Shown here: piece after piece, positions 6,554 to 34,966 of the stretch
Position numbering within the stretch: the stretch's first letter is position 1
Layout: the number at the start of each line of letters is the position of its first letter
Assembly: GCA_033648345.1 (NCBI GenBank)
Contig: GCA_033648345.1_4121.1
Length of the DNA stretch: 64,000 bases
DNA from: a phage
Reading direction: 5' to 3' (one strand)
The notes under the pieces: model-generated
Told to the model about the DNA's origin: nothing
What the model saw: the letters and a program-made list of their open reading frames with translations, nothing else
Databases searched by the model: none
Made by a program: the position numbers and the translations under genes

Positions 6554-6563
6554 ACATTTAAAA

Positions 6564-6595: not shown

Positions 6596-6624
6596 TTGTA
6601 GAGGGTTTTATAAGAGGTAATGCA

Positions 6625-7237: not shown

Positions 7238-7244
7238 AAGAAAA

Positions 7245-7277: not shown

Positions 7278-7303
7278 CATTTCATCAACTACTGGAGGTA
7301 AAC

Positions 7304-7717: not shown

Positions 7718-7728
7718 GGAACAACATC

Positions 7729-8004: not shown

Positions 8005-8014
8005 GGGTAAAAAA

Positions 8015-8353: not shown

Positions 8354-8362
8354 GGATTGATA

Positions 8363-8704: not shown

Positions 8705-8705
8705 G

Positions 8706-17753: not shown

Positions 17754-18890
17754 TTAAACTGGTGGAGAATTATATGGCTCAAATTTATAAGTTGTCGTAG
17801 CAGTACCAGCAATGGCGTTGTTAGCTAGTATGTACATAGTCCTGTAGTCGATTACCACTACAGTAATACTACCACCAAAAGCATAGTCTGTTATGTTATT
17901 AGTGTTGAATGGTAAATTAGATGAACTGGTCCATGTATTAGCTGTTGTGCTATTTGTACCATTGGAATAACCTACACTAGATGCACCAGTTGTCCATAAG
18001 TTTCCATCATTGAACAAGGAGACATGGTTAGTTGTATATGATTTATTAGGTATAGAACTATCAATTGGTGTATTCCAAACTTTAGTAACCCATGTTGTAA
18101 CTGCTGTATTATTAGTAACGCCATTACCTAATGAACCATTTATTGGTATACCTCTTATATAAGAAGTGTTAGTACTAGGGTCAACATATCCAAATGTATA
18201 TGTATCAAATGCAAATTGAAAACAATCAGAACTCGGTAATGTGTACAGTAATGTATATGAAGACGTGTTTATTGATGAATTTGTACCGTTCACGCCTTGG
18301 TATAAAATACCACTAGCCAATATTTGATTATTATTTTTTGTTATAGTGTTCATTGATGGATATGTTTTCACATCACGCACATCATTAGTCACATATGTTT
18401 GTGTTGATAATGCAACGTTACTACCATTACCTATAACCCCTGTATTTGCACCACTCCCATAAAGTGAACCATCATTCAAAAGAACCATTGTAACATTACC
18501 ATTTCCCGTAATTGTTTTAATATTACTAACATCCACCGCAGCAAATACAGTTGATGTTAAATCAGTGAAACGTGTATAATGTGATGTTGTGCCATTGATT
18601 GGTGTCGCAAAACCAGAATACAATATTCTATTTTCTTTGGTAATAAGGAATGTTCCAGTAACACCATTTGAATGGATATCAACAATATTATCTCCCATTA
18701 ATACCCAATCACTTACGAATGTTGTTGTACCAGTACCTAACCCATGTGTAGTGTTGTAACCACGTCCATACACTCTACCATCACTGAGTAATGTTACCAC
18801 ACATTGACCACCACCACCAAGGATAACTTTTTGGATAGTACTCTTTACTTTTATATTCCCGTACTTAACCATTCTTGCAAAAGGTAACAT
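17754..18890 (-). CDS. RCC1-like beta-propeller repeat protein, MLPF family 2
   Basis: Starts MLPFARMVKYGN; HGLGTGTT, GVIGNGSN, GSLGNGVT repeats. Confidence 0.8.
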   Translation of the reverse strand: MLPFARMVKYGNIKVKSTIQKVILGGGGQCVVTLLSDGRVYGRGYNTTHGLGTGTTTFVSDWVLMGDNIVDIHSNGVTGTFLITKENRILYSGFATPINGTTSHYTRFTDLTSTVFAAVDVSNIKTITGNGNVTMVLLNDGSLYGSGANTGVIGNGSNVALSTQTYVTNDVRDVKTYPSMNTITKNNNQILASGILYQGVNGTNSSINTSSYTLLYTLPSSDCFQFAFDTYTFGYVDPSTNTSYIRGIPINGSLGNGVTNNTAVTTWVTKVWNTPIDSSIPNKSYTTNHVSLFNDGNLWTTGASSVGYSNGTNSTTANTWTSSSNLPFNTNNITDYAFGGSITVVVIDYRTMYILANNAIAGTATTTYKFEPYNSPPV

Positions 18891-18935
18891 AATTCCCTCC
18901 TTTATTCATTATACTATATTTAACCAAAAAGAAAA
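18891..18935 (-). promoter_or_regulatory. conserved -10-only promoter / SD cassette of the MLPF genes
   Basis: Minus strand reads TTAAATATAGTATAATGAATAAAGGAGGGAATTATG. Confidence 0.6.
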
Positions 18936-18954
18936 GCCAGTACTCTGTACTGGC
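18936..18954 (-). terminator. hairpin terminator
   Basis: GCCAGTAC-NNN-GTACTGGC then T-rich tract on minus strand. Confidence 0.65.
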
Positions 18955-18960
18955 ACTATA

Positions 18961-20310
18961 TTACAACAAATGTATTTCTGTGAGTGTTTGATATGTTACA
19001 CCGTTGTACACACCTCTCCAATATACCTTACCTTCAGTACTAACCACTAATAATCCATATGTTGTAAACCCAAGAGTACCACCAACATACATAGCATCTT
19101 TGATTTTAATACCAATGTCTTCATATGTAAATGAAGCGACTGCTCCCGCTTGCCATGAAGGACTAGCATAGTAATCACTATAAACACCATGTGCTTTATA
19201 TATTGATGTTGTTCCGGGTTCAAAAATTACAGTTCCACAGTAGTTCATTCGTATTTTGGTACTGGATGAAGTTGGTACATTTATACCTACATCATCTTTA
19301 ATCCCTGTAGTTAGGACGTTAAAACCACCCGCTACACGGTTGACGTCATTCGCACCGATTAGAAACATACCAACGTTGTAGCCCATATAATACACACTAC
19401 TTGTACCATTCCAGAAAGAAAAACCACCACCATTACCACAGCGATATAGTTGTGAATTTGAGCAGTACATCATGCCTTCGTTTGATGCATCAAAATCATC
19501 TGCTGTTCCGATTACAGCCACGGTAGTCCACGTTTTAATCACTTGGTTTGTACTAGCTGGTTTTTGTATACCATATCGTATATTATATCCCTTACCTACG
19601 ATTGTACCATCTTCTAATTTGGCATAAAGTACAGGTCTATTACCAACAAAATACACATTATTATGTGACATGTCTATTGTGCATCTTAATGAAACTGCTT
19701 TTTGTGTCAATTGATTATCTTTAGTAAAAGAAGTAAAGTAGTAATCTGATGTGGAGTTGTTTATTAAACCTTGAATCGACAAACCCATATACCAGATTTC
19801 ACCATTAGTGTTCAATGCTGCCAAAATACAACTATATTTTGAAGTGTATGCTGGGGTTAATGATGTTGCTGGACCTTTATCATATCCACCACAGAATACC
19901 ATTTCCACAACTTCACCTACGTTAGAAAAATAAGAAGATACATTTATAAAACCATTTGTTATAAAAGGTGCTGTAGTTATACTTGAATGTGTGAATATTC
20001 CATTTGCATATACACCACAAAAATGATATGAACCATCATTATCTTTAACTATTATTCCATTTGATAGTAGCCAAAAATTGTTTACATTTTTTCGTACTAA
20101 TTCAATTCCTGTACCATTGGTTGGTGTTATACCAAAAGAAACATATTTTGTTTGACCAATACCATATAAATTTCCATTTGATGCTAATATTGCACCAAAC
20201 CAATTACCACCACCATTCCTATCATGACCCATACCAATGGAGTCGAATTTCTTTACAGTTGGAACCTCTACTGTATTCCCATAATCAAATAATCTAACAA
20301 AAGGTAACAT
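18961..20310 (-). CDS. RCC1-like repeat protein, MLPF family 3 (longest, 449 aa)
   Basis: Starts MLPFVRLFDYGN; GGAGG RBS directly after upstream stop, no terminator between. Confidence 0.75.
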   Translation of the reverse strand: MLPFVRLFDYGNTVEVPTVKKFDSIGMGHDRNGGGNWFGAILASNGNLYGIGQTKYVSFGITPTNGTGIELVRKNVNNFWLLSNGIIVKDNDGSYHFCGVYANGIFTHSSITTAPFITNGFINVSSYFSNVGEVVEMVFCGGYDKGPATSLTPAYTSKYSCILAALNTNGEIWYMGLSIQGLINNSTSDYYFTSFTKDNQLTQKAVSLRCTIDMSHNNVYFVGNRPVLYAKLEDGTIVGKGYNIRYGIQKPASTNQVIKTWTTVAVIGTADDFDASNEGMMYCSNSQLYRCGNGGGFSFWNGTSSVYYMGYNVGMFLIGANDVNRVAGGFNVLTTGIKDDVGINVPTSSSTKIRMNYCGTVIFEPGTTSIYKAHGVYSDYYASPSWQAGAVASFTYEDIGIKIKDAMYVGGTLGFTTYGLLVVSTEGKVYWRGVYNGVTYQTLTEIHLL

Positions 20311-20320
20311 ATATTCCTCC

Positions 20321-21500
20321 TTAAACTTGTGGTAGTGGGTATTCTGTTAACGTCCATGTACCAACAACTGTTCCAATTGGTGACCTACCCGTGTAATATA
20401 ATTTATTATCCGCATACACAAATAATGCACCATCATTGGCAGCAACCAATGAGGTATCTGGATCAAATACCAAAGAGCTTGGAAATTGTGTTTGAACGAA
20501 AATCGAAGCATTGTTAGTTGAGTTGATGCCGAGTTGCCCCTGGTTATTATACCCAGTACCAAAAATACGTTTCCCATTTCTATACAATATACCCCTTGAA
20601 CTTTGTGAATGTAGTGGTATAAATTCAAAATCGGAAACATCAGTTAATTGTAAATAAGTACTTTGTGGAGTTAATGATGTCTTATTAGTATTGGTTGTAA
20701 TTCCATTACCTAATTGTCCGCACTACTTGTGCTCCTACGCCATATAGCGGATAAGTACCATCTGAATAAAGAACTATACCCAACATATTAGTATGTGAAA
20801 AAATATCAATGGGATATTTCCCAGGACCAAAATCATACTTTGTCCAACTCGTTAATGTAGCCGAAGCAGCACCAGTTAACAACGTACCAGAAGTAGTTTT
20901 ACCACATCGCCACGCAGTATTATCATTCTTAATTATCCAAGTTGGACTATTAAAAAATGAACTAACCTTTTTGACATTAATATTAACCTGAGTTAATGAT
21001 GTAAGCATTTCTGAAGTAGTACCCAACTCATATGTAGAATTGTCACCTATAGCATAAAGAACCCCACTATTTGTTAGTACAAACATATTACGAGCATTAG
21101 GATATATCTCTTTAATATTATCTATATCAATACTAGAAAAATAAGAAGTACATTCAACAAATGTAGTACTTTGTACTGAATTTGATGTACCTGTCCAAAT
21201 ATCCCAACCTGCATAATAAAATTTATTATCATTTGTCTGTACTAAACTAAATGAAGCATTCCTGGTGCACCAGAAATTTTTCACATTTTTCATTAAGAGA
21301 ACCCAGTTGTTCTGTGTGGTAGTATTTCCAAGTCCGAAAATACCAGCGTTGTTTCCTCCTATACCCCACAAATCACCATTCTTATACAGAAGCATTAATG
21401 TATTGTTGATAAACGCCGATGGTGCTTGCATCTTAATTACATTAGATTCATAAACAGGTTTAACATTCCCGTACTTAACCATTCTTGCAAAAGGTAACAT
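20321..21500 (-). pseudogene. RCC1-like MLPF family 4, interrupted by a frameshift near 20715-20725
   Basis: MLPFARMVKYGN frame stops at 20706; an offset frame continues CGQLGNGITTN... without stops to 20321, restoring the family length of about 390 aa. Confidence 0.6.
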
Positions 21501-21545
21501 ATTTCCTCCTTTTATTTGTTATACTATATTTAATAAAAAAGAAAA
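21501..21545 (-). promoter_or_regulatory. conserved -10-only promoter / SD cassette
   Basis: TTAAATATAGTATAACAAATAAAAGGAGGAAATATG on minus strand. Confidence 0.55.
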
Positions 21546-21579
21546 GCCAGTACAGAGTACATGCATTGTATTTCACATT

Positions 21580-22755
21580 TTATTCTGGTAAAATCATTTT
21601 CTTCATTTTAACTTGTTGTGTACCTGGACTCTGTTCCTGAAACATAGACCCGTTACCACACCAGTACACCTCATTAGTCCCCACTAACGCGTATAACACA
21701 CCAGAACCACCTTGAACTGAAAATGCATTAACATCTGGTGCAACATCCATATCCTCATATTGTACCTGGTGGTAATAAGATCTTTCTGATGCAGTAGTAA
21801 CAGGCCAACCAAGAGGAACACCACTACCACATGTATAAAGTTTACCATTCTGTGTCATTGCCATTATAAAATAATTCAAACTGTGATTGTTCATCGACCC
21901 AGCATCTGGTATAATACCACTAATTGCGGGAGTGGCACTAAATGGACTCATGATAATAGTAGTGTCGCCATACCCTATTCCTAAACAATAATCAGTGTTT
22001 TTTCCAGCCGTATATACATTAATATTATTTCTATTAGATGTAAGTACTGAAGTCGTTAATGTAGTACATGAAATACCAATAACTGTTCCCGATATATCAG
22101 TACTTACCGTAAATGTCGAAAGGTTAGAAGAACCTGATCCTAAGTTGTAACTTGCGTTATTCCCACATCTGTAGTATTGATTATTTTTAACATAATGGAA
22201 AGCATCCCCAGCCGTTGTTCCCGCAATTATAGTAACCCCAGTAGCAATCTGAATTGGCGTTGTTTTTCTACCAGTAACACCCAATGCACCTCCTGTATTA
22301 CGCCCAATCCCATATAAGTCCCCATTACTTAACAAAATCAATAACGCACCATTTGATGCAGTAGTTTCAGTAGCAGCTATATCTACTACTGTAGTAAGTG
22401 CTGGTATTGTAGACAATAAAGATGTGATATTAGTCCATCCAGGAACTGGTGATGCAGATACACCGACATAACCCATTTGACCAGCTAAGTAAAATTCTCC
22501 GTCAGTCGTAAGTATAATTGTTGCTGCAAAGAAGCACCAAACATTAGAAACTTTATATGGACACTGTACCCACCCATTTTGCACATACGCAGTGCTATTA
22601 TTTCCTAGCATATAGTGTGCACCATTTCCACGTAGATATAAGTTACCACTATCAAATAACATACCCATATGTGATGGAGATGTACTTATCTTCATAACAC
22701 CTGAAGGTGCTGGAACTCTGTTTCCGTACTTAACCATTCTTGCAAAAGGTAACAT
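21580..22755 (-). CDS. RCC1-like beta-propeller repeat protein, MLPF family 5
   Basis: True start MLPFARMVKYGN at 22755; the track's upstream extension translates the promoter/SD cassette (..MNKGGN). Confidence 0.8.
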   Translation of the reverse strand: MLPFARMVKYGNRVPAPSGVMKISTSPSHMGMLFDSGNLYLRGNGAHYMLGNNSTAYVQNGWVQCPYKVSNVWCFFAATIILTTDGEFYLAGQMGYVGVSASPVPGWTNITSLLSTIPALTTVVDIAATETTASNGALLILLSNGDLYGIGRNTGGALGVTGRKTTPIQIATGVTIIAGTTAGDAFHYVKNNQYYRCGNNASYNLGSGSSNLSTFTVSTDISGTVIGISCTTLTTSVLTSNRNNINVYTAGKNTDYCLGIGYGDTTIIMSPFSATPAISGIIPDAGSMNNHSLNYFIMAMTQNGKLYTCGSGVPLGWPVTTASERSYYHQVQYEDMDVAPDVNAFSVQGGSGVLYALVGTNEVYWCGNGSMFQEQSPGTQQVKMKKMILPE

Positions 22756-22800
22756 ATTTCCTCCTTTATTCATTATACTATATTTAATACAAAAAGAAAT
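22756..22800 (-). promoter_or_regulatory. conserved -10-only promoter / SD cassette
   Basis: TTAAATATAGTATAATGAATAAAGGAGGAAATATG. Confidence 0.6.
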
Positions 22801-22821
22801 GCCAGTATCAAGTACTGGCAT
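22801..22821 (-). terminator. hairpin terminator (slightly degenerate)
   Basis: TGCCAGTA-tcaa-TACTGGCA. Confidence 0.5.
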
Positions 22822-22826
22822 TGTGT

Positions 22827-24006
22827 TTATCTAAAAGGAACGCACTTTTTGAATTTATATATATATCCAGTCTCACCTTGTTCAGTAAAATACCCAGGGT
22901 TTCCAGTCCAGTATAAATCCTCACCTATACTAACTACCGATACTGAACCATTACCAATCGTACCAAACCACTCAACATGTGATAAGTCAACACTATCATC
23001 AAAGAATTCTATTGGTAATATTGAACCATAATTCCCAGAGACTGCGTTGCGGCCTAAACCAGCACCATTAGAATTATATCCCTTACCATTCGTATTAATA
23101 ATGTTAGTACTGGATTTTATTGCATTAACATAGGATACTGGTGAAAGTTTATCGAATGAATTTGCTGTTATATCGGTATAGGGATTGGTAGTAAATGATG
23201 ACCTTATTATACCAGTATTTTCAGAACCACCTATAGTCAACTGTGTGTTCCAACCAGCCGCCATTAAAGACAAAGCAGATGTACTACTTTGAACAATCAA
23301 ACGTGTTACCCATCGTGTAGCTTGTACTGCAATTACATGAGAACTACCAAGATTCAATGCAGTAAAACTAGTAATAGGCTTATTATCACCGGTTCCTAAT
23401 TGATAAAAAGTATTCTCACCACAACGATAATATATACCATCTTTTATATAGTGAAAGTTTCTGCTCATTTCACTAGATGCAATTGCAGATACACTAGTGT
23501 CAATTAAGAGTGGAGATGTAATTGGTGCAGTTGCTGTACCCAATTCACTTGCACCATTCATGCCTATACCATATAACTGCCCGTCACTTGTTAGTATTAA
23601 CATGGAATTGTTAGTTCCGGTTGATGATGTTATTTTTATATCTTTTATTGAACTCGGAGAAATAAATCCAAAATATGATTCACAACGAGTCCATGTTGAA
23701 ACCGAAGATGATATACCAAAAACTGAGTTAGTCCCACTATAGTACAATTCCCCTTGTTTTGTTCTAATTATAGTACAATATAGAGAACTCCAGAAATCAT
23801 CAACACTATAAGGACATAAAACCCATCTATCCAAAAAAGATGAACCAGTAACTCCCATTTTTGCTGATTGGTTTCCGTCCACGCATATATAATGACCCAT
23901 CACTGTATAATACGCTTATTGAATTTTCATCACTATTAATTTTAACAACAGTATCTTTGACAGGGGCAATATTCCCATAATCAAATAATCTAACAAAAGG
24001 TAACAT
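22827..24006 (-). pseudogene. RCC1-like MLPF family 6, interrupted by a +1 frameshift near 23877-23883
   Basis: MLPFVRLFDYGNIAPVKD...SLYMRG frame from 24006 runs into a stop at 23827-23829; main ORF frame (..DGNQSAKMGVTGSS..) is offset by one nt. Confidence 0.6.
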
Positions 24007-24051
24007 ATATTCCTCCTTTATTCATTATACTATATTTAATAAAAAAGAAAA
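24007..24051 (-). promoter_or_regulatory. conserved -10-only promoter / SD cassette
   Basis: TTAAATATAGTATAATGAATAAAGGAGGAATATATG. Confidence 0.6.
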
Positions 24052-24070
24052 GCCAGTACTGAGTACTGGC
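24052..24070 (-). terminator. hairpin terminator
   Basis: GCCAGTACT-c-AGTACTGGC + TTTTCTTTTTT on minus strand. Confidence 0.7.
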
Positions 24071-24076
24071 ATTATG

Positions 24077-25186
24077 TTATTTTGGTAAATCAATTTTAGT
24101 AAAGACTGCAACATCTGCACTTGCACCTGGAATGGCGTAATACGATCCAGTACTATATACATTCCCGTCTTTGGTTAATAATGATGTTAATCCGTCACTA
24201 AAAGCAACATCACTAATCTCACTAACTTCTACAGGTAATTGTAAATTAGCAGCACTATAGATAGCACCCGTTTGAGAATTGTTTAATCCCAAACCACGGT
24301 TTCCCCCAATACCTTTCTGATATGCACTAGTTAATATAATTTGCGTAGCCGTGCTTGTTGCCTCTGAATTTGTCATAAACAAAGGTGAATTATTAGGTAA
24401 AGTACTTACAGGAACTGCTTTGAATGTAGTTGAATCTGAACTAAGAAAGTTTGGAGTTGTACCACATGTGAAATATGATGTACCATTATAGTAATTGAGT
24501 GTATGTCCACCAATAGCTGCATCTATTACACCAGAACTACGCAGTCCCCAAATGTTAACTTGTGTTCTGTTCCCTGTGCCATGTAATCCACGGTCATTCC
24601 ACCCTGAACTATATAACTTATTATCTATGCTAATATACATACTATCATTAGGAGTAGACATAACTTTACGCACATTAGAAGCACATAGTGTTAATGTATA
24701 TATTGATGAAGAACCAATCCCCAATACACCACGGTATCCATTAGCTCCAGCACCATAGAGTACTGAACTTGAACTGAGTACAAATATTACACCACCATTG
24801 CATACAATATTAGCAATTTGATTCACAGGAATTGTATTTGTAAACCACTCCGTTCTATCAACTAATGTAGTACTGTAAGAAGTTGTTGTTGATGATGTGA
24901 ACCAATATGTTTCACCTGATGTCCATATCGTATTGTCATTTTTAATAATAACAAGTGTTCGTCCTCCAGTGAAAAAATTAGAAACATCTGCACTTACTAA
25001 TGTCCAAGAAGATACCGTGTTTTTATTACCATTTCCAGATTCACCACCTTGATTTCTGCCTATGTAATACAATTCATGTGAATCAGTCAATACGAATTGA
25101 CCTTGAGTAGAAGCACCAACTTTAATTATATTTTTAGGACCAGAGGTAATATTCCCATAATCAAATAGTCTTACAAAAGGTAACAT
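24077..25186 (-). CDS. RCC1-like beta-propeller repeat protein, MLPF family 7
   Basis: True start MLPFVRLFDYGN at 25186; AGGAGG RBS lies inside the end of the upstream gene. Confidence 0.8.
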   Translation of the reverse strand: MLPFVRLFDYGNITSGPKNIIKVGASTQGQFVLTDSHELYYIGRNQGGESGNGNKNTVSSWTLVSADVSNFFTGGRTLVIIKNDNTIWTSGETYWFTSSTTTSYSTTLVDRTEWFTNTIPVNQIANIVCNGGVIFVLSSSSVLYGAGANGYRGVLGIGSSSIYTLTLCASNVRKVMSTPNDSMYISIDNKLYSSGWNDRGLHGTGNRTQVNIWGLRSSGVIDAAIGGHTLNYYNGTSYFTCGTTPNFLSSDSTTFKAVPVSTLPNNSPLFMTNSEATSTATQIILTSAYQKGIGGNRGLGLNNSQTGAIYSAANLQLPVEVSEISDVAFSDGLTSLLTKDGNVYSTGSYYAIPGASADVAVFTKIDLPK

Positions 25187-25194
25187 AATTCCTC

Positions 25195-26397
25195 CTATTG
25201 TTGCCATAACTGCGTTGGCATTAATGTTAGTGTAGTAATACTATAAGTGCCATCAGGCAATCTACCACCATTACCATTCCAGCCACCACATGCATATAAT
25301 TTATAATCTTTAGTAATTATTATGGTTCTGCTCCAATCTTTAGATGCCATAAGAACATTGTCATAACCACCACTTATTGCATTAAGATTAAAAATATTCC
25401 AAGTCCTAACTAATGTATTAGTTCCATTACCTTCTTGACCGTATCCGTTAGCACCACTACTTCTAACATATGGTGCGTATTGTGCCATAGGTGCACCAAT
25501 TGATGCATTTCCCATATTACTTGGACAAATAAAAGTACTGTACTTACTTACATCAACCGTGACCGATGTGTTCCTAATTGGTGTTAGCTGATTTACCGAT
25601 GTAGTCGTACCATTACCAGCTTGTCCAGTACTGTTAGCCCCGCTATAATATACAGGCCCACCAGTAGTAAACCACCAAGTAACATCGTATGTAGTACTAA
25701 TATGTTCGACATCACTCATCACATATTTGTTCAAATATATCATAGAACTAGCACCACAACCACTTTCACCGAAGTTATCCTTACCACAAAACCATGCCTT
25801 TTTATTTGATTTAATATAGTGCGTTCCTTGTAATGAACATGCCATATGTGTAACTTCACCCATATTAGTCATAACTGTTAGTGTAGGTATGGAATTTTGA
25901 TTACCAGACCCACATTCACCATTGGTATTTCTTCCACACGCAATTACTCTACCATCGGTTAATAATATTCTAGTACTTTCACCTATATATACACTCTTGA
26001 TCATATTAGCCATAACACCAATTTTATTAAATGAAGCAGTAACATCAGTCCATGTTCTCAAATAACCATTAACAGGTGTTGCATCTCCATAATCAGAAAA
26101 TGCACCAACCGACCCAGTGTAGTATATTTTATTATCCAAATCAATCATCAATGAACCTTGAACACCAAGCCAAAAGGCTGCACATCGCGTTGCAAGTACT
26201 GTAAATGACGCAACTGCTGCTGAATTCCCAAGACCAAATTGATAAAAGTTATTACTACCATAACCATATAAAGTATTAGTTGGGCTATGTAGATACATAC
26301 AGTTTGTATAATGTTGTTGTAAAACATTTGAGAACTCTATTGGTTCTGGCCCTGGTGCAATATTCCCGAACTTAACCATCCTCGCAAAAGGTAACAT
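25195..26397 (-). CDS. RCC1-like beta-propeller repeat protein, MLPF family 8 (close paralogue of 28805-29998)
   Basis: Starts MLPFARMVKFGN; long identical runs with family 11; ends LMPTQLWQQ. Confidence 0.8.
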   Translation of the reverse strand: MLPFARMVKFGNIAPGPEPIEFSNVLQQHYTNCMYLHSPTNTLYGYGSNNFYQFGLGNSAAVASFTVLATRCAAFWLGVQGSLMIDLDNKIYYTGSVGAFSDYGDATPVNGYLRTWTDVTASFNKIGVMANMIKSVYIGESTRILLTDGRVIACGRNTNGECGSGNQNSIPTLTVMTNMGEVTHMACSLQGTHYIKSNKKAWFCGKDNFGESGCGASSMIYLNKYVMSDVEHISTTYDVTWWFTTGGPVYYSGANSTGQAGNGTTTSVNQLTPIRNTSVTVDVSKYSTFICPSNMGNASIGAPMAQYAPYVRSSGANGYGQEGNGTNTLVRTWNIFNLNAISGGYDNVLMASKDWSRTIIITKDYKLYACGGWNGNGGRLPDGTYSITTLTLMPTQLWQQ

Positions 26398-26407
26398 ATT
26401 TCTCTCC

Positions 26408-27538
26408 TTAATTTAATAATGCCCCTGGCAAATCCACTTTGACGAATTGTGCATATGCTGAGGAATTTTGATCAAAGTTTGGTCCCAATCCATAAAATGA
26501 GCTAATGCCGTCTTCATTTGTGTATATGATATAAACGTTCTTTACATCATTTCCGCATATAAATCGAATGTCTTTCGTTTGTGTTCCCGCTGGAACATTA
26601 CGAAGGCTCACAACGCCATTACTTGCATTGTTATCAGCCGACGCAATTGGTAATTGATTTTGACCATATTGACCACGCATATTTTTTGCATCTAAACCAA
26701 ACACAGTATTTGATACCGCACCAACTTTCAAAAATGAACCAAAACTATCATTGAATGACTTTGGAAATGTACCACTATAAACACTTCTCCCATCTGATAA
26801 TACCGCTGAACTGAATTTCCCGCTATTCGATATGGCAAATTCATTGTAAGGAAGTGTACCCATTTTGGTATATACAGAATATGAATTAGTGGAAGTATTA
26901 TCAATAATCTTATTACCATTATATCCAATACCATACTGGTATCCGTCTGCATCTTGAACTATACACAAAGGACCACTTGGGGTTTGTGTCAACGAAACAA
27001 CACGTTCAACTTGTATATCACCAAATGTATTTCTTCGCCATGTTCTATCTATTATAGTACTAGTATTACCCAAAGATAATGCCACACTATATAATAGATT
27101 GTTTTCAGTAAAAATGGCAACATAATATGCGTGGTTAATAACTTGCTTCATCCCAGCATCAATAACTTCCTGTGGAATATGATCAGTAACATCCAACCAA
27201 TCAAGGTTAGATGATGCAATATCTGGAGTACTGAATTTGTCAAATCTAGTTGAGCCACAAACTAGCACTCTATCATCATTTGTCAAAGCCACTGTGCTAG
27301 TCTGCATATTAGAACTGAATGATTTAACATTACTAATGTTAGACTTGTACCAACCCTTATCAGCAGCACCCACCGTGAATCCGGTTCCCATTGATCCACT
27401 TGTACTTGTACCATAAGCCCACATCTCACCACTATATGTTAGTGCCATACAGTGGCTTCCATTTGCTTGGAAATCCTTTATACCAGTGGGAGCAACCACT
27501 GTATTCCCATAATCAAACATTCTAACAAAAGGTAACAT
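26408..27538 (-). CDS. RCC1-like repeat protein, MLPF family 9
   Basis: True start MLPFVRMFDYGN at 27538. Confidence 0.75.
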   Translation of the reverse strand: MLPFVRMFDYGNTVVAPTGIKDFQANGSHCMALTYSGEMWAYGTSTSGSMGTGFTVGAADKGWYKSNISNVKSFSSNMQTSTVALTNDDRVLVCGSTRFDKFSTPDIASSNLDWLDVTDHIPQEVIDAGMKQVINHAYYVAIFTENNLLYSVALSLGNTSTIIDRTWRRNTFGDIQVERVVSLTQTPSGPLCIVQDADGYQYGIGYNGNKIIDNTSTNSYSVYTKMGTLPYNEFAISNSGKFSSAVLSDGRSVYSGTFPKSFNDSFGSFLKVGAVSNTVFGLDAKNMRGQYGQNQLPIASADNNASNGVVSLRNVPAGTQTKDIRFICGNDVKNVYIIYTNEDGISSFYGLGPNFDQNSSAYAQFVKVDLPGALLN

Positions 27539-27583
27539 AACTAAAATCTCCATATAATAATTATAATGTATTTACAAAAAAAA

Positions 27584-27609
27584 TACCAGTACGTATTTCA
27601 GTACTGGTA
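27584..27609 (-). terminator. hairpin terminator
   Basis: TACCAGTAC-8 nt-GTACTGGTA + T8 on minus strand. Confidence 0.65.
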
Positions 27610-27613
27610 TCAT

Positions 27614-28795
27614 TTATGGTAAAATGATAGATTGTAACGAACTCATACCCAATGCTGGAACACTAGCCTGTGGTGCTGGAGAATTCAATTTTGGTGATGA
27701 AACCGCATATGACATTCCTGAACCCAAATCTGGATCAAAAACTACAGCACAATAATTCCCACTATATATAAGTCCATTCTTGTATCCTTGTGCACTTTGA
27801 ATGCATTTCGTGAACGTACCAATATCTGTAGTGGCATTTATTAAGTTCCTCCCACGATAACCGCAGGTGTATATGAAATTATCATCGCCTATGTACATAC
27901 TAGAATCCCCAGAAGAACTACATAGATACGACATATAAGCACGCATGTTTTTAGGAGCAACTGACAATGTACCTGCATAGAATTTATTATTCGAACCCGT
28001 AATATCACCATCACCCAATGCACCAAAACTTCCCCAGCCAGTACCGTAATATCTCTTATCACTCAAAAATATAATACAGTTGTTATTACACATCTTGATT
28101 TGATATATCAATGAAGGATCAACCCCAGGGAATGATTCAGTGAATGTTAGAACAGCCGGATTAGTACTAGCATTACATTGATGATATGTATTAGTACCAG
28201 AGGACAAGATTGTTCCATTAGCTAACAGAATTCTCGCAGTACCAGTACCAGCAGTACAAGCAACTGCACTTCCTGCACTTCCGGTGTATATTTGTCTGAA
28301 AGTAAAGAAACCAACAGTCTTACTCCCTTGTCCACTCCAACCAGTATTATCAACACCACACGCCCATACTGAACCATCTTCCATGATCATCATTACACCA
28401 AAGCGTTCTATTGAAATATAAACAATCTTTTTAGTATCAACTGCACGAAATCTAGAAGTTATATCCGTCCAAACCTTTACACTTACCGAAGTCGCACTGG
28501 AAGTAGGATCTTCACCTGCTATCATTATCCTACCATTGTTAGTCAGATACATTGTCTGACTATAACCAGTACTACAAAACTTAACACTATCAGTCTCTGG
28601 AACTTTTAACCACTCGTTGTAACGTGTTACGTTAGTGTTATTACCTAACTGATAATAGTTATTCATCCCAGATACATATAACACACCATCCTTTATTAAA
28701 CTATAAGTCGCACTATAGTCACTACAGGTATAACGTGTACCCACAGGTCGCTCAACGACGTTCCCATAATCAAACATTCTAACAAAAGGTAACAT
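27614..28795 (-). CDS. RCC1-like beta-propeller repeat protein, MLPF family 10
   Basis: Starts MLPFVRMFDYGN; YYQLGNNTN, FGALGDGD repeats. Confidence 0.8.
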   Translation of the reverse strand: MLPFVRMFDYGNVVERPVGTRYTCSDYSATYSLIKDGVLYVSGMNNYYQLGNNTNVTRYNEWLKVPETDSVKFCSTGYSQTMYLTNNGRIMIAGEDPTSSATSVSVKVWTDITSRFRAVDTKKIVYISIERFGVMMIMEDGSVWACGVDNTGWSGQGSKTVGFFTFRQIYTGSAGSAVACTAGTGTARILLANGTILSSGTNTYHQCNASTNPAVLTFTESFPGVDPSLIYQIKMCNNNCIIFLSDKRYYGTGWGSFGALGDGDITGSNNKFYAGTLSVAPKNMRAYMSYLCSSSGDSSMYIGDDNFIYTCGYRGRNLINATTDIGTFTKCIQSAQGYKNGLIYSGNYCAVVFDPDLGSGMSYAVSSPKLNSPAPQASVPALGMSSLQSIILP

Positions 28796-28804
28796 GATTT
28801 TCTC

Positions 28805-29998
28805 CTATGATTGCCATAACTGCGTTGGCATTAATGTTAATGTTTTAATTAAGTAAGTACCATCCGGTAATTTACTACCTGAACCGTTAAAGCCCCCACA
28901 TGCATATAATTTATAATCTTTAGTTATAATTATTGTTCTGGACCAGTCTTTGGATGCCATAAGAACATTGTCATATCCACCCTGTATCGCACTTAAAGAA
29001 AACGCCCCCCACGAAGTAATTATTGTTGTATTTCCCGTCCCTTCTTGACCATATGTATTGATGCCTGCACTCCTGACATATGATGGGTATTGAGCCATAG
29101 GTGCACCAATTGTTGAGTTACCCATATTACTAGGACACAGGAAACCATCACTAATATTCACTATAACCTGTGAATTCTGAACTGTAGTTAATTGGTTTGT
29201 AGTTGAAGTAGTACCATTCCCAGCTTGTCCAGAATTGTTTCTACCACTCCAGTACACCCTACCGGCAGTAAACCACCAGGTAACATCATAAGTAGTACTT
29301 ATATAATCGACGTTGGTTCGTATTAATTTATTAGTAAAAACGTATGAGCTAGTCCCACCACCACTTTCACCAAAGTTATCCTTACCACAAAACCATGCTT
29401 CTTTATTTGTTTTGAGATAGTGCGTACCCTGTAATGAACACGCCAATTGAGAAACTTCACCCATACCAGTAACAACTGTTAGTACTGGAATGGGATTTTG
29501 GTTACCTGTTCCACATTCGGCATTTGCATTTTTACCACAAACAACGACTCTTCCATCGTGTAGTAATATTCTAGTACTTTCACCTATATGTACACTCTTG
29601 ATTAAATTAGCGTGTACATTTATTTTGTTAAATGCGGCAGTAACATCAGTCCATGTTCTAAAATAACCATTAACTGGAGTTGCATCTCCATAATCGGGGA
29701 ATGCTACTGTATTCCCTGTGAAATATATTCTATTATCCAAGTCAATCATCAATGATCCATGAACGCCTAACCAAAAGGCTGCACAGTGCGTTGCCAGTAC
29801 TGTAAAAGTTGAAACTGCCGATCGATTCCCTAGACCTAATTGGCTCAAGTTATTACCACCATAACCGTATAGTGTATTCGTGGGCTTATGTAGATACATA
29901 GCATTAGTATAATGTTGCTGTAAAACATCAGTGAACTCAACTGGATCAGGAATAGGCAGTTTATTCCCGTACTTAACCATTCTAGCAAAAGGTAACAT
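28805..29998 (-). CDS. RCC1-like beta-propeller repeat protein, MLPF family 11 (close paralogue of 25195-26397)
   Basis: Starts MLPFARMVKYGN; ends LMPTQLWQS. Confidence 0.8.
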   Translation of the reverse strand: MLPFARMVKYGNKLPIPDPVEFTDVLQQHYTNAMYLHKPTNTLYGYGGNNLSQLGLGNRSAVSTFTVLATHCAAFWLGVHGSLMIDLDNRIYFTGNTVAFPDYGDATPVNGYFRTWTDVTAAFNKINVHANLIKSVHIGESTRILLHDGRVVVCGKNANAECGTGNQNPIPVLTVVTGMGEVSQLACSLQGTHYLKTNKEAWFCGKDNFGESGGGTSSYVFTNKLIRTNVDYISTTYDVTWWFTAGRVYWSGRNNSGQAGNGTTSTTNQLTTVQNSQVIVNISDGFLCPSNMGNSTIGAPMAQYPSYVRSAGINTYGQEGTGNTTIITSWGAFSLSAIQGGYDNVLMASKDWSRTIIITKDYKLYACGGFNGSGSKLPDGTYLIKTLTLMPTQLWQS

Positions 29999-30045
29999 AA
30001 TTCCCTCCTTTATTCATTATACTATATTTAATCAAAAAGAAAAGC
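29999..30045 (-). promoter_or_regulatory. conserved -10-only promoter / SD cassette
   Basis: TTAAATATAGTATAATGAATAAAGGAGGGAATTATG. Confidence 0.6.
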
Positions 30046-30061
30046 CAGTACTCATTTAATT

Positions 30062-31207
30062 TTAACGAGGTATAACTATTTTTTTGAATAATCCAGTATT
30101 TCCTGCATTTTCTTCTTCATATGGAATTGTACCCATACCAGCAGTTCTGCCACCATTCCCTGAACCATACAGTTCTCCATTCTTAATCATGAATGTTATC
30201 ATATAACCATGTGTCATTTTATCATATGGAACTGGTTCAGTTATATTATTACATGCTCGCCATGTACTAATAACACTAGAGTTCGTTATACCATCACCTG
30301 ATGCGTTTCCTCGACCAGCGAAATACCATATCCCACCTGCTCTAACGTGTGCTTCATAATTAGAACCACCTATGTAATCAATCGCAGTACTAGGAATACT
30401 AGAAGCTGGTATCTTTGTGATTGTTCTAAGACTGTTAATAGTGCCATTAGTGCCATCACCCAACTGTCCATATATTTGTGAACCGAATACATATAGCCCA
30501 TCACTCTTTAATACGTAATTAGCACTATATGCATTTTCTGAATTTATCTGTAATACTCCAGTAGTAACAGTAGTCAATGTGGTAGTTGTACCAGTCGAAC
30601 CAATACTAGATTTTTTCCCACTGTACTTTAATGTTCCATCATTGTATAATACAAATGAAGCATTATCAGCGGTTACACCAATATCTTTAACATCAACTTC
30701 TGGTGTCAATGTCAGTACTGATACTCTTTGGTCAACAGCCCCAGTAAAAACTTCACCGTTGTTATTGTAACCCATCTTATATAATTTATTATCTATTGTT
30801 AATAATAATGTAACGCCGTTTCCTATAACTATTTTACTATATGTGTCATTCACATCATCAAAAATACCAAGTATTTCTGTCCATACACGATAAGTAGTAT
30901 TAACACCACGATAGATTTGAGCACCAGTACTCCACCATGTGCCATCATTTTTACGTACTAATATTCCGTGTGTATCACCAGTAGTCCAAAATTCCTTTAC
31001 ATCAGTTAAACATAAAACCCACTCTTCAACTATAGTAGGAGAACTACTACCAGTACCTAATTGATAGTAAAAATTATGCCCTCTGCCATATAATCTTCCG
31101 TCTTCTAATAAAATAAACACATTATTCTGTAAAACTTTTACCATCTTTATACCAACTGGCACAGGTGCTTCATTCCCACAATCGAACATTCTAACAAAAG
31201 GTAACAT
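30062..31207 (-). CDS. RCC1-like beta-propeller repeat protein, MLPF family 12
   Basis: True start MLPFVRMFDCGN at 31207; YGQLGDGTNG, YYQLGTGSS repeats. Confidence 0.8.
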   Translation of the reverse strand: MLPFVRMFDCGNEAPVPVGIKMVKVLQNNVFILLEDGRLYGRGHNFYYQLGTGSSSPTIVEEWVLCLTDVKEFWTTGDTHGILVRKNDGTWWSTGAQIYRGVNTTYRVWTEILGIFDDVNDTYSKIVIGNGVTLLLTIDNKLYKMGYNNNGEVFTGAVDQRVSVLTLTPEVDVKDIGVTADNASFVLYNDGTLKYSGKKSSIGSTGTTTTLTTVTTGVLQINSENAYSANYVLKSDGLYVFGSQIYGQLGDGTNGTINSLRTITKIPASSIPSTAIDYIGGSNYEAHVRAGGIWYFAGRGNASGDGITNSSVISTWRACNNITEPVPYDKMTHGYMITFMIKNGELYGSGNGGRTAGMGTIPYEEENAGNTGLFKKIVIPR

Positions 31208-31251
31208 ATTCCCTCCTTTATTCATTATACTATATTTAATCAAAAATAAAA
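31208..31251 (-). promoter_or_regulatory. conserved -10-only promoter / SD cassette
   Basis: TTAAATATAGTATAATGAATAAAGGAGGGAATATG. Confidence 0.6.
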
Positions 31252-31270
31252 GCCAGTACAGAGTACTGGC
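31252..31270 (-). terminator. hairpin terminator
   Basis: GCCAGTAC-tct-GTACTGGC + T-rich tract (minus strand). Confidence 0.7.
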
Positions 31271-31277
31271 ATAGTAT

Positions 31278-32405
31278 TCAAAAAGGTAAATCAATTTGCT
31301 TAGTAATAATAGTATCTAACGGTATTGAACACAATGAGAAATTCTTTCCACCCGTATTTTTAGGATTATATCCATTCATCCATACATTATTACCTTCGTA
31401 AAATGTATTCCAGTATAAAGACCCACTATATCGTGTATTCGAATTGAACGATGTAAAATTGAATTCTTGAAATGCTGTAAAATATGGAAGGGAACTTGAA
31501 CTACTTCCCGTAAATGGGGTATGCCCAGTTGCTATTAGTTTGTTTGTATCTGCATTAATTAAAAATACAACACTAGTCGAATAGTCCAACGAATCAGGAT
31601 GATATATATTACTCATATCACCTATAGTAAAACCAACATCAAAAACTTTAATATGTGCACCACTACCAGCAAAAGTAGTTCCAGTTGCATATATTTTATT
31701 ATCAGATGTTATCATTACAAAACCAACACCAGAAACAAAACAGCATTTTATATCATAAGATATATCATCAAACAACGGAACAAATGTGGTTGCATCACCC
31801 GATGTTGCTTTAACTTGAAAGCTGTTATTTGAACCTGAACCATATACAGTTCCATCGTTTTTAATCTTAAACACTGTATCACCAAGGTAACCGCCAAATA
31901 TATTATCCACATTAGTGTCAAGTACAGTCCACGCTGAAACATAATTTTTATGTCCTAAACCTAATGCACCACTTCGATTCCATCCTCTTCCATAAAGTGT
32001 TCCGTCTTTCATTAATATAAATGCTGTATAACCACATAACATTTTTTTAATTTGGGTAACATCTATACCAGTGAAATACACAGCCCAGTCAGTATATCCT
32101 TGTTGGAAAGTATTAGAATTCGTGAATGCATATGTTGAACCTGAACCATATATTTTATCACCTTTAATAACAACGGAAAACGATCCTAACCATAAGTCAT
32201 CAACTTCAGTTGTGATTTGTTGAACTGCTCCTAACGATACAAACTGTGTACTTAAACCCGCATTATAGTTTGAATCTTCACCGTGTGCATATACAGTGCC
32301 ATCTTGCATTAGAAACATTTCAAGAGTGTAACTAACAACACTTTTCTTTATATTATTAACTTCGATTATATTCCCATAATCAAACATTCTAACAAAAGGT
32401 AACAT
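31278..32405 (-). CDS. RCC1-like repeat protein, MLPF family 13
   Basis: Starts MLPFVRMFDYGN; SGALGLGHKN repeat. Confidence 0.75.
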   Translation of the reverse strand: MLPFVRMFDYGNIIEVNNIKKSVVSYTLEMFLMQDGTVYAHGEDSNYNAGLSTQFVSLGAVQQITTEVDDLWLGSFSVVIKGDKIYGSGSTYAFTNSNTFQQGYTDWAVYFTGIDVTQIKKMLCGYTAFILMKDGTLYGRGWNRSGALGLGHKNYVSAWTVLDTNVDNIFGGYLGDTVFKIKNDGTVYGSGSNNSFQVKATSGDATTFVPLFDDISYDIKCCFVSGVGFVMITSDNKIYATGTTFAGSGAHIKVFDVGFTIGDMSNIYHPDSLDYSTSVVFLINADTNKLIATGHTPFTGSSSSSLPYFTAFQEFNFTSFNSNTRYSGSLYWNTFYEGNNVWMNGYNPKNTGGKNFSLCSIPLDTIITKQIDLPF

Positions 32406-32449
32406 AATTCCCTCCTTTATTCATTATACTTTATTTAATACAAATAAGA
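32406..32449 (-). promoter_or_regulatory. conserved -10-only promoter / SD cassette
   Basis: TTAAATAAAGTATAATGAATAAAGGAGGGAATTATG. Confidence 0.6.
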
Positions 32450-32477
32450 ATTCCTGTATCGAGTACTGGCATTCAAT

Positions 32478-33626
32478 TTATTGTAAAAAGGACATATCTA
32501 CTTCTGTATAACTAAGAATGTTTTGACCAGCAATTCCACCCATTACTACTATTGCATACCCACAATAATATAATTTCCCAGTGTCCGTAAGTATAAGTGA
32601 ACCAGAAGGTGTTCTTACCAAATTACACGAACTATTAAAAGAAGTATACGAAGGAGTATAGGAGTACTGATTAATATTATTACCAACACCTAATTGACCA
32701 CCCCTATTCGAACCAGATGCATAAAGTACTTCATCTGCTTTGACAATATGTGATGCCATGTTAGCAACACATGCATATACACCATATACCCCTGTACTCA
32801 ATAATGTAGGAGTCTTGTATTGAATATCAGTACTAGTAGATGTTCCACCTGTGCCAAATTCATTACCATATTGTGCTCCGTACTGCTTCCCACATGCGTA
32901 CAAATTATTATCCGATTTGATAAAAAATGTACTCTGATAACTTACATCAAAATCTATAACATCCGAAGAAATCATCGTTACCCCAGTAATCGAAGTTTGA
33001 TTACCAGTACCCAACTGGTAGTAATAGTTAAAACCACAACCCCATAAAGTATTATCTTCTCGCAAATAAATGTTACCAACAGCCTTTTTAACAGATGTTA
33101 TAGTACTGACCTTCTTGAATGTATTAAATGAATCAATGTTAGTACCATCTCCAAAGGAGGATATGTTCGATGCGTTATTAGCACCACAACAATATAATGT
33201 CCCATCCTTCAGTACTAAATTTACCTTCATATCATTAAAACTGCTCATGTACTCAATATCAGATACACTAATACCACCTGATGTTATCCACGTAGTACAG
33301 TCCGTCCATAACGTCTTCCTATCAGTTACCCCAGTAAATGCCTTCGTGTTACCAGTGATAAACACTTTACCAGTACCCTTTTCTTCATACAATTGACAAT
33401 CACTACTGTTATCTTCCAATAAAACCCTCTGTACATTCTCTGCACAAAGAATAAATTTACTCGATGCTACACCTGTTCCAGTACCCCAATTCGTCGCAGA
33501 AGATGCATACAACTTATGTGTTAGTGTATCATGCAAATACATAGAACCACTAGAATATATTTTAAAACGCCCTTCTTTCTCAGGTATAATATTCCCATAA
33601 TCAAACATTCTAACAAAAGGTAACAT
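32478..33626 (-). CDS. RCC1-like beta-propeller repeat protein, MLPF family 14
   Basis: True start MLPFVRMFDYGN at 33626 (the track's MNKGGN prefix is the SD); YYQLGTGNQ, GGQLGVGNN repeats. Confidence 0.8.
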   Translation of the reverse strand: MLPFVRMFDYGNIIPEKEGRFKIYSSGSMYLHDTLTHKLYASSATNWGTGTGVASSKFILCAENVQRVLLEDNSSDCQLYEEKGTGKVFITGNTKAFTGVTDRKTLWTDCTTWITSGGISVSDIEYMSSFNDMKVNLVLKDGTLYCCGANNASNISSFGDGTNIDSFNTFKKVSTITSVKKAVGNIYLREDNTLWGCGFNYYYQLGTGNQTSITGVTMISSDVIDFDVSYQSTFFIKSDNNLYACGKQYGAQYGNEFGTGGTSTSTDIQYKTPTLLSTGVYGVYACVANMASHIVKADEVLYASGSNRGGQLGVGNNINQYSYTPSYTSFNSSCNLVRTPSGSLILTDTGKLYYCGYAIVVMGGIAGQNILSYTEVDMSFLQ

Positions 33627-33671
33627 ATTCCCTCCCTTATTCATTATACTATATTTAATACAAATAAGAAA
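33627..33671 (-). promoter_or_regulatory. conserved -10-only promoter / SD cassette
   Basis: TTAAATATAGTATAATGAATAAGGGAGGGAATATG. Confidence 0.6.
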
Positions 33672-33690
33672 GCCAGTACAGAGTACTGGC
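33672..33690 (-). terminator. hairpin terminator
   Basis: GCCAGTAC-tct-GTACTGGC (minus strand). Confidence 0.7.
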
Positions 33691-33697
33691 CTATCAA

Positions 33698-34864: not shown

Positions 34865-34966
34865 ATTTCCTCCTTTATTCATTATATCATATTTACCCCA
34901 TAAACAAAACCCTTGACAACCTTCCAGTACTGATGTACTATAGAAGGAATATAAGGAGAACTACAC
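34865..34966. promoter_or_regulatory. divergent control region between the RCC1 array and the small-protein array
   Basis: Minus: TATAATGAATAAAGGAGG cassette; plus: TTGACA(34913)-N17-TACTAT(34936), AAGGAG RBS. Confidence 0.6.

Follow-up and report, generated by a model that had tools for sequence, protein, structure and literature searches.

An RCC1-like gene array with a recurring intergenic cassette

This analysis concerns a short cassette that recurs between the genes of a paralog array in a 64,000-nt stretch of phage DNA (GenBank assembly GCA_033648345.1, contig GCA_033648345.1_4121.1), referred to below as the window; the copy at 18891–18960 serves as reference (Table 1). The window belongs to an Asteriusvirus jumbo coliphage of the 121Q/PBECO4/G17/phAPEC6 group: megablast of positions 17000–24000 matches Escherichia and Salmonella jumbo phages only, the top match being WPEC3 with 99.3% identity in a patchy alignment covering 67% of the query. 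All 15 array proteins start with MLPF[VA][RL][ML][FV][DK][YFC]GN and match RCC1-like profiles, namely Pfam PF25390 (below its cut-off) and PHROG 4219 'regulator of chromosome condensation', while past residue 15 their median identity is 23%, with a single pair at 72%. An AlphaFold2 model built from 14 of the window paralogs is a beta-propeller (predicted template modelling score 0.83), which Foldseek superposes on UVR8, the HERC2 RLD and RCC1 with a TM score of ~0.75. In this model residues 1–12 (MLPFxRMxxYGN) lie outside the propeller with a predicted local distance difference test score (pLDDT) below 50, and the peptide, instead of contributing to the fold, may be a tag for packaging, cleavage or interaction. 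Retention of these residues for closing the propeller is disfavoured by the same low pLDDT outside the fold, weak evidence that is not decisive. Mass spectrometry has identified RCC1-like proteins in phAPEC6 virions (PMC7247149), and the GenBank record of Klebsiella phage fENko-Kae01 (Kae01) flags one array member as identified by liquid chromatography-tandem mass spectrometry (LC-MS/MS).

The original prediction, made from the letters alone, had placed one uniform unit of hairpin, promoter and Shine-Dalgarno sequence (SD) in nine of the intergenic gaps. The 23-mer TATAGTATAATGAATAAAGGAGG occurs 8 times on the minus strand at ≤2 mismatches, with 0 expected from 100 shuffles, and the ninth gap, at 21501, carries TATAGTATAACAAATAAAAGGAGG, a TATAAC/AAAAGGAGG variant. 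TAAATA-N3-TATAA, an AGGAGG-type SD 5–6 nt before the ATG and the conserved first 36 coding nucleotides are found at all nine gaps, and the TATAAT hexamer ends 17–18 nt before the start codon, so that the predicted SD and the closeness of the hexamer to the gene both hold. Uniformity extends to the promoter, the SD and the 5' coding block (9/9) and not to the hairpin, which is intact at 5/9. Nor are the cassettes confined to these gaps, since two variant copies (27539–27613 and 16994–17070) had been overlooked. In the alignment of the resulting 11 copies, the only invariant elements upstream of the SD are TAAATA and TATAA. The copy at 27539 has its own leader and SD (TATGGAG), unlike the others. 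Two copies face plus-strand genes: the array-head region diverges from a TTGACA-17-TACTAT promoter, and 16994..17070 is a divergent region shared with the gene 17071..17721. Finally, four array genes (ATG at 20310, 25186, 26397 and 28795) lack a cassette, being SD-coupled to the preceding gene.

Table 1. Features of the RCC1-like array and of its cassette copies. The parts of the reference copy are listed first, followed by the other copies.
Feature	Position	Strand	Support or remark
RCC1-like beta-propeller paralog array, n=15	15869..34864	-	one plus-strand gene inside the array
Terminator-like hairpin GCCAGTAC-AGA-GTACTGGC of upstream paralog 18961..20310	18936..18954	-	-12.4 kcal/mol, z -3.7; terminator scan
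T tract TTTTCTTTTTGG after the hairpin	18935-18924	-
TAAATA, proposed true promoter element, here gTTAAATA	18917..18922	-	invariant in 11/11 window copies
TATAAT, 3 nt downstream of TAAATA	18908..18913	-	TATA invariant; bases five/six AT, AC, AA or TT
Shine-Dalgarno AGGAGG, 5 nt before ATG 18890-18888	18896..18901	-	read directly; conserved in the alignment
First 36 coding nt MLPFARMVKYGN, part of the recombining block	18855..18890	-	DNA-level conservation among paralogs
Cassette copy, weakened hairpin GCATGTAC..GTACTGGC, TAAATATAGTATAAC	21501..21579	-
Full cassette copy	22756..22826	-	-13.0 kcal/mol
Full cassette copy; downstream gene frameshifted after ~codon 40-59	24007..24076	-
Variant cassette: hairpin ACCAGTAC-N8-GTACTGGT, T8, GTAAATACATTATAAT	27539..27613	-	-15.0 kcal/mol
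Copy with intact promoter and SD, 3' hairpin arm only	29999..30061	-	no stable fold
Full cassette copy	31208..31277	-
Copy with degenerate hairpin, TAAATAAAGTATAAT	32406..32477	-	-4.7 kcal/mol, no better than shuffles
Full cassette copy	33627..33697	-	-14.6 kcal/mol
Array-head promoter region without hairpin, GGGGTAAATATGATATAAT	34865..34966	-	TGn extended -10 also present
Variant promoter of last array gene, TTAAATAAAGTATAAC, without hairpin	16994..17070	-

Terminator-like hairpins

The hairpins of the copies in front of 18890, 22755, 24006, 31207 and 33626 are strong (-12.4 to -14.6 kcal/mol, z -3.7 to -5.9), that in front of 21500 is weak (-5.4 kcal/mol), and the copies in front of 32405 and 29998 have a fold at shuffle level and a lone 3' arm, respectively; RNA folding revealed no hairpin at the array-head copy, in front of 34864. 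When a GC-containing stem-loop followed by a U-rich tract is taken as the mark of an intrinsic terminator, six copies qualify (18890, 22755, 24006, 27538, 31207 and 33626), the one at 21500 is marginal, and those at 29998, 32405 and the head do not qualify. A terminator scan of the array found 23 terminator-like sites, with 7.5 expected. Across copies and genera the stem varies in a compensatory manner (GCCA/TGGC, GCTA/TAGC, GACA/TGTC and GTCA/TGAC), and the GenBank records of G17 and Munch already annotate terminators at cassette positions. A search of the window with Rfam at gathering threshold and with a tRNA scan gave no matches, and the hairpins are thus not explained by known RNA families.

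Conservation of the cassette in related phages

The 106-nt unit is present in 8–16 copies in nearly all of ~38 matched Asteriusvirus-like records, two records having 5 copies, and more distant jumbo phages of Salmonella, Klebsiella and Erwinia carry it in recognisable form. Salmonella phage Munch, Kae01 and Erwinia phage Hallingskeid share only ~29% genome average nucleotide identity with Asteriusvirus (PMC13070987). In these three phages the N-terminal peptide reads MIPF... (Munch-type form MIPFxRILxYGN), the leader between the hexamer and the SD differs and is 4–12 nt long, and the hairpin lies 4–5 nt closer to the motif, the hairpin-to-motif distance ranging from 9 to 14 nt between genera. 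Despite the altered leader and spacing, TTAAATA(T/C)-NN-TATA(A/T)T is kept in all three, and in representative copies TAAATA-N3-TATAW(T) is the element conserved across three genus-level phage groups. The terminal gene of Munch and Kae01 keeps TTAAATAT and has lost TATAAT. Besides, a hairpin-less variant, GGGTAAATATGATATAAT, stands at the array head in the window, G17, ECO103, WPEC3, Munch and Kae01; that it is kept at the same position indicates that homogenisation is incomplete and that position-specific variants are inherited. A search of IMG/VR for exact matches to TTAAATATAGTATAAT was uninformative, yielding isolated chance matches in unrelated AT-rich contigs and nothing else.

The conserved core of the promoter

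It had been proposed that TATAAT is a -10 element working without a -35 and that the leader is minimal. The lack of a -35 was confirmed, as a two-hexamer scan calls no cassette through TATAAT and no -35 hexamer is found 16–18 nt from it, the terminator T tract and hairpin occupying the sequence upstream; via CTGGCA-17-TATAGT, a single copy reaches 9/12 in the sigma70 scan. The possibility that the 3' hairpin arm conceals a -35 (CTGGCT, 16–17 nt, TATAGT) was rejected on the variable distance between hairpin and motif, because the hairpin is 4–5 nt nearer in Munch, Kae01, Hallingskeid and window copy 27538. A middle promoter of the MotA-box type was also rejected, with no TGCTT-like box 11–13 nt upstream of the hexamer in the alignment. 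The predicted contrast with the TTGACA/TTGCAA promoters holds as well, dozens of TTGACA/TTGCAA-N17-TATAAT promoters being present elsewhere in the window, in two other repeated cassette types. As for a sigma70 extended -10, the internal copies (TAGTATAAT) do not have it and only the head copy, TGATATAAT, qualifies; T-7 is replaced by C or A in several copies.

The sole upstream hexamer that is invariant in every true copy inspected, in seven genomes, is TAAATA. It is the core of the T4-type late box TATAAATA, from which the reference copy (18917..18922, with TTAAATA spanning 18923–18917) differs at -13/-12 only. Across the copies, the late-box core from -11 to -6 is invariant, and -13/-12 are A/G and T/G instead of T and A. 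In the same set of true copies, the hexamer that follows ends in T, C or A, or reads TATATT, and the TATAAC and TATAAA variants are retained in orthologs. A sigma70 -10 would not tolerate the loss of T-7, while an AT-rich melting segment would. The likeness to T4 late promoters suggested in the original prediction stands, with the T4-like element being TAAATA, three bases upstream, and not an inexact match in a TATAAT -10. The minimal leader does not survive this shift, since with TAAATA as the -10 equivalent the leader would be ~20 nt. Were transcription to start 7 nt after TATAAT, as with sigma70, the transcript would open with the SD, whereas the late reading gives a normal leader of ~20 nt. 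In the reference copy, TATAAT would be either the melting and start region of a late promoter (predicted start ~18909–18911) or a sigma70-type -10 (start ~18901).

The same motif precedes structural genes

In phAPEC6 and ECO103 4-12-1, (T)ATAAATA is found 16–50 nt upstream of the genes for the major capsid, the scaffold/protease, the baseplate and other structural proteins, with a median box-to-ATG distance of 34 nt for structural genes versus 26–27 nt in the cassette. Across the ECO103 genome, the strict motif TAAATAYNNTATAWT is found 14 times, 13 times in the array and once before a virion structural protein gene, and TAAATA-N3-TATAW has 19 sites, 13 of which are the array cassettes. Of the six that lie elsewhere, five are 23–28 nt upstream of open reading frames (ORFs), which encode a virion structural protein, a tail fiber, a tail tube, a head-tail adaptor and, in the structural module, an HNH nuclease. 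The tail-fiber promoter, ATAAATATAGTATATATTAATCATAAAGGG, is nearly the cassette sequence, and the sequence upstream of the phAPEC6 baseplate-wedge gene, gcTTTTCTTTTTGAATAAATA, is one base apart from the cassette, gcTTTTCTTTTTGATTAAATA, over that stretch. A candidate to read this motif is phAPEC6 gp237c, encoded outside the window, which belongs to the gp55 family (phrog_12791, E 3e-154; phrog_234 'late sigma transcription factor', E 8e-18).

The paper on the related phage CBB predicted three promoter classes for this phage group (RpoD-like early, TGAAACG/TATA and late ATAAATA) and noted a gp55-like sigma (PMC5259590). In T4, late promoters lack a -35 box and have AT-rich sequence downstream, and those of Aeh1 vary at -13/-12 (PMC2988020). 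The use of TAAATA-N3-TATAW before tail and head genes makes a separate, array-only class improbable. The suggestion that the array promoters form a distinct class is thus right in that they differ from the sigma70-type cassettes of the window, and probably wrong in that the same architecture precedes tail and head genes. Most likely, the cassette promoter is of the ordinary late class with an unusual T/G at -12. In the literature on promoters and transcriptomes of the 121Q/RaK2 group, only in-silico classes for CBB and GAP32 were found.

Recombination at the conserved blocks

Along the paralogous coding sequences (CDSs), nucleotide identity is 99–100% over nt 1–12, 75–82% over nt 13–36 and ~35% thereafter. 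Identical residues share their codon in 82% of pairs within codons 1–12 versus 45% elsewhere (Leu 98% vs 29%, Pro 100% vs 46%). Recent tandem duplication as the source of this block identity was rejected, since the gene bodies are ~23% identical except for the one pair at 72%.

When compared to WPEC3, the array splits into gene-sized segments of 94–99.6% identity, which end in the cassette or in the first ~46 coding nucleotides and whose neighbours overlap inside the conserved block; one module is differently placed in the two phages. We then took as breakpoints the internal ends of segments of at least 90% identity against WPEC3, G17 and ECO103 (n=17). Eleven of them fall in cassette blocks and five at SD-coupled junctions with a conserved 5' CDS (16/17 in all), and the remaining one lies 1 nt outside a block, while cassette blocks make up 7.3% and SD-coupled/5'-CDS blocks 1.4% of the region (binomial P ~3e-9, with the caveats that the three comparison genomes are not independent and that intact genes are selected for). 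At copy 29999–30061 the breakpoint is inside the hairpin.

Module order differs between the genomes compared, and with orthologous bodies grouped at ≥80% body identity, the same body is seen behind a head-type cassette, an internal cassette or none, depending on the genome. The 382-aa gene heads the array in WPEC3 and ECO103, whereas the window and G17 have it inside the array behind a full cassette. The 393-aa and 400-aa genes vary too, being preceded by a cassette in part of the genomes and SD-coupled in the rest. The N-terminal 36-nt blocks also differ between orthologs. In G17, three adjacent genes carry an identical MLPFARMMNYGN-coding block, and the orthologs that two of them have in the compared genomes lack it. 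Altogether, the breakpoints at the blocks, the mixed 5' units and the codon identity support the earlier suggestion, for which a DNA-level alignment had been proposed as a check, that the block favours recombination or gene conversion.

A proposed insulated late unit and its alternatives

We read the cassette as a compact, self-contained expression and insulation unit for each RCC1-like virion-protein gene or SD-coupled group of two or three genes: a terminator, a variant of the T4-type late promoter, an SD and a 5' coding tag, which together also act as recombination homology. We put the probability of this reading at about 0.6. Our confidence in the anatomy and in the recombination role is high, and late expression with gp55-like dependence is probable, judging from sequence. 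On this proposal, the GC-cored hairpin and U tract would terminate the transcript of the upstream paralog. A -35-less promoter with TAAATA as recognition core would then be read by the host RNA polymerase core carrying the phage gp55-like late sigma, TATAAT acting as melting and start region ahead of the ~20-nt leader; a consensus AGGAGG SD follows 5–6 nt before the ATG, and the first 36 coding nucleotides encode the conserved N-terminal peptide. The hairpin-to-codon-12 block of ~105–110 nt, near-identical between genes that are ~23% identical, would serve as portable homology for phage recombination, with gene-sized module shuffling, cassette gain and loss and local gene conversion of 5' ends as the outcome. 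The late, gp55-type reading is the best supported because the motif before structural genes, the gp55-like sigma and the virion products come together.

Several observations weigh against this reading. At position -12 the array copies always have T or G, whereas at TAAATA sites upstream of genes elsewhere in ECO103 the base is mostly A (28) or C (13) and T is rare (5/54), which makes the array copies atypical late boxes. TATAAT is a perfect sigma70 -10 that is nearly as conserved as TAAATA, and the head copy has a TGn extended -10. The raw count of TAAATA-N3-TATAW outside the ECO103 array is near chance (6 vs ~4.7 expected), only the placement before genes being telling. Homologues of gp33 and gp45 are reported missing in CBB (PMC5259590), so that the T4 activation mechanism may not apply. 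In the literature searched we found no transcript data for this phage group, hence timing and start site are inferred here. Finally, selection for intact genes would also favour breakpoints at gene boundaries.

Tandem promoters with dual timing are known for some T4 genes, and a late-type TAAATA promoter overlapping a sigma70-type TATAAT promoter, with low early and high late expression, would accommodate both elements, which keep a fixed 3-nt spacing in three genus-level groups, as well as the extended -10 of the head copy, conserved in Asteriusvirus, Munch and Kae01. We consider this arrangement rather unlikely: the objections to sigma70 use of the internal copies apply to it equally, and the occurrence of the bipartite layout before the genes for the tail tube, the tail fiber and the adaptor points to one late architecture. 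Those objections are best seen when TATAAT is taken to be read by host sigma70 alone, as a -10-only element (extended -10 at the head) giving early or constitutive, probably weak expression with a leader of ~10 nt from the SD. The perfect TATAAT of most copies, the head copy, one Hallingskeid copy (TGTATATT) and the use of TATAAT in the early cassettes of the window speak for it. The internal copies, however, have neither a -35 box nor TGn, the C or A at the T-7 equivalent is retained in orthologs, the predicted start puts the SD at the extreme 5' end and falls within the SD in Hallingskeid, the terminal copy of Munch and Kae01 keeps TAAATA without the hexamer, and the gene products are virion proteins; we regard exclusive sigma70 use as unlikely.

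Reading of the motif as a middle-class promoter by a phage RpoD-like sigma, and not by the gp55-like one, is very unlikely. Such a sigma is encoded in these phages as a hallmark of the group (Sharanji WNN14470, CBB_513), but the candidate middle class of CBB and GAP32 has a -35-like TGAAACG, and the late-sigma gene of phAPEC6 is preceded by GACAAAC-N-TATAAT, neither of which is in the cassette, whose motif is instead common to structural genes with TATAAATA-type boxes. Least credible of all is that the block is no promoter, the array being transcribed from the head with hairpins as attenuators, 3'-end stabilisers or processing sites and the A/T-rich block conserved for no other reason than gene conversion or a role in enhancing translation. 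The block has evidently undergone gene conversion, four SD-coupled cassette-less genes indicate that polycistronic expression occurs and several hairpins have decayed, but conversion within a genome cannot explain why TAAATA/TATA is retained across genera while the leader to the SD diverges, the same motif precedes non-homologous late genes, and strong hairpins with U tracts would block read-through.

A further idea, which we hold only tentatively, is that the array serves specifically to diversify beta-propeller proteins that are carried, and possibly ejected, by the virion, with the cassette and the disordered 12-residue tag as a 'socket'. If so, any propeller body recombined into it would be expressed late and delivered to the particle, the tag would be a packaging signal, and the locus would be a late-gene counterpart of integron-like shuffling, of the early-gene units compared below and of the T4 internal-protein (IP) locus.

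Comparison with known systems

Promoter-early stem-loops (PeSLs) of T4-like phages are repeated units of ~100 bp that combine a strong sigma70 early promoter with a stem-loop terminator and take part in modular shuffling (Arbiol et al. 2010, PMC2839356; Comeau et al. 2014, PMC4122927). The array cassette resembles them as a conserved composite of terminator stem-loop and promoter of ~70–100 bp, present between genes in many copies in a plastic genome region, flanking gene-sized modules and acting as portable homology in which breakpoints between close relatives fall; the breakpoint inside the hairpin at 29999–30061 recalls those reported for RB49 mini-circles. It differs in its promoter, where the strong sigma70 early type of PeSLs (-35, ~17-nt spacer, -10, AT-rich upstream sequence) was not found and a -35-less, late-type TAAATA core is present instead. 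PeSLs flank unrelated ORFans, whereas the array cassettes flank one paralog family and their block runs 36 nt into the CDS; moreover, the host is an Asteriusvirus jumbo phage and not strictly T4-like. The cassette works like a PeSL and yet is no member of that class, being a late-promoter variant. The PeSL description fits the two other cassette types of the window, at 1–13 kb and 42–61 kb, much better.

With T4 late promoters, which depend on gp55, gp33 and gp45 (Geiduschek & Kassavetis 2010, PMC2988020), the cassette shares the absence of a -35, the AT-rich segment downstream, a TA-rich recognition box about one helical turn upstream of the putative start, the position before virion-protein genes, a gp55-family sigma encoded in the phage group and variation at -13/-12 of the Aeh1 type. 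It differs in that the array box is (A/G)(T/G)TAAATA, never TATAAATA or ATAAATA as before most structural genes, in that TATAWT follows at a fixed 3-nt spacing, and in that gp33 and gp45 homologues are reported as undetected in CBB.

The T4 IP locus encodes virion-packaged proteins with a conserved N-terminal capsid-targeting sequence. The likeness, meant as an analogy only, lies in variable virion proteins with a short conserved N-terminal peptide, conserved 5' flanks and differing bodies; RCC1-like propellers are unrelated to IPs, and there is no sign that MLPFxRMxxYGN is a targeting or cleavage signal.

No paper on the cassette, its promoter or its role in array plasticity was found in the literature searched. 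The present data would extend mobile terminator-promoter linker cassettes beyond T4-like phages and early genes, to late virion-protein paralogs in 350-kb jumbo phages. According to the fEgEco12 paper, closely related Asteriusvirus genomes differ most in 'chromosome condensation regulator' genes, an observation left unexplained there, and cassette recombination offers a concrete mechanism for it. Besides, TAAATA-N3-TATAW provides a promoter definition for late-gene annotation in this phage group, and the 12-residue tag and the cassette provide handles for engineering or tracking these unexplained virion proteins.

Further features of the array and its surroundings

The gene at 22827–24006 (minus strand), behind the cassette 24007–24076, contains a frameshift, with a stop after 59 codons in frame 0 and continuation of the RCC1-like sequence in the +1 frame (ORF 22827..23903). 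WPEC3 and ECO103 have the same break, which points to a pseudogene that was inherited or to a frameshift that is tolerated or decoded. Two gene pairs on the minus strand, 25195–26397 with 24077–25186 and 28805–29998 with 27614–28795, have upstream genes that are 72% identical and end in ...MPTQLWQ(Q/S); both pairs are SD-coupled through the same junction, ccaacgcagttatggcaa-N-ataggag, and their downstream genes are only ~23% identical. The WPEC3/ECO103 ortholog of 27614..28795 has its own cassette.

Two paralogous plus-strand genes of 216 and 219 aa (phrog_34359, function unknown) lie at 17071–17721, where the gene interrupts the minus-strand array, and at 36579–37238, beyond the array head. 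A bidirectional terminator at 17729–17747 is common to the first of these and the array gene 17754..18890. On the plus strand, 34967–39973 holds ~17 tandem small ORFs of 59–77 aa, many alike in length and tightly coupled, with a negative GC skew (-0.18 to -0.2), unlike other plus-strand regions, and a strongly positive AT skew.

Other repeats in the window

The second cassette type lies on the plus strand at 225–12560 and consists of a hairpin, GGTTGACTTCGGTCAACC, containing the -35 TTGAC(T/A), followed by T5-6, TATAAT, cATTTCATCAAC and an SD, with examples at 3826–3860, 4480–4514, 7243–7277, 11606–11640 and 12490–12524. It fits the PeSL definition of a sigma70 promoter overlapping a terminator stem-loop, and the G17 record has three identical -17 kcal terminators at corresponding positions. 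At 6560–6595 the same hairpin is followed by GTAAATA in place of TATAAT. The third type, with ~35 copies on the plus strand at 40650–61000, reads AAAAAGTACTTGCAA (or TTGACA), 17 nt, TATAAT and GTTTTACATC, with a hairpin, GGGGAGAA-N-TTCTCCCC, in the 5' untranslated region of each small gene. Relatives have their long direct terminal repeat (DTR), or early region, at the corresponding place, and the DTR annotation of Kae01 abuts the array head.

The palindrome AGTACT is over-represented, with 275 occurrences in the window versus 21.6 expected from base composition, most densely at 32–60 kb; CAGTACTG occurs 63 times in the window versus 0.7 expected. A literature search found no paper mentioning AGTACT over-representation. 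In the complete 352-kb ECO103 genome it occurs 919 times versus 119 expected, palindromic hexamers of the same composition 48–215 times, and AGCGCT, GGTACC and CGTACG not once. Coding DNA contains AGTACT at 2.4 per kb, in each of the three frames, and non-coding DNA at 4.6 per kb; the palindrome also lies within early promoters (AAGTACTTGCAA, cAGTACTGTATAAT) and in terminator stems (CCAGTAC..GTACTGG), and it is enriched 9–16x in the Munch, Kae01 and Hallingskeid loci. One possible role is that of a site which a phage protein binds or modifies.

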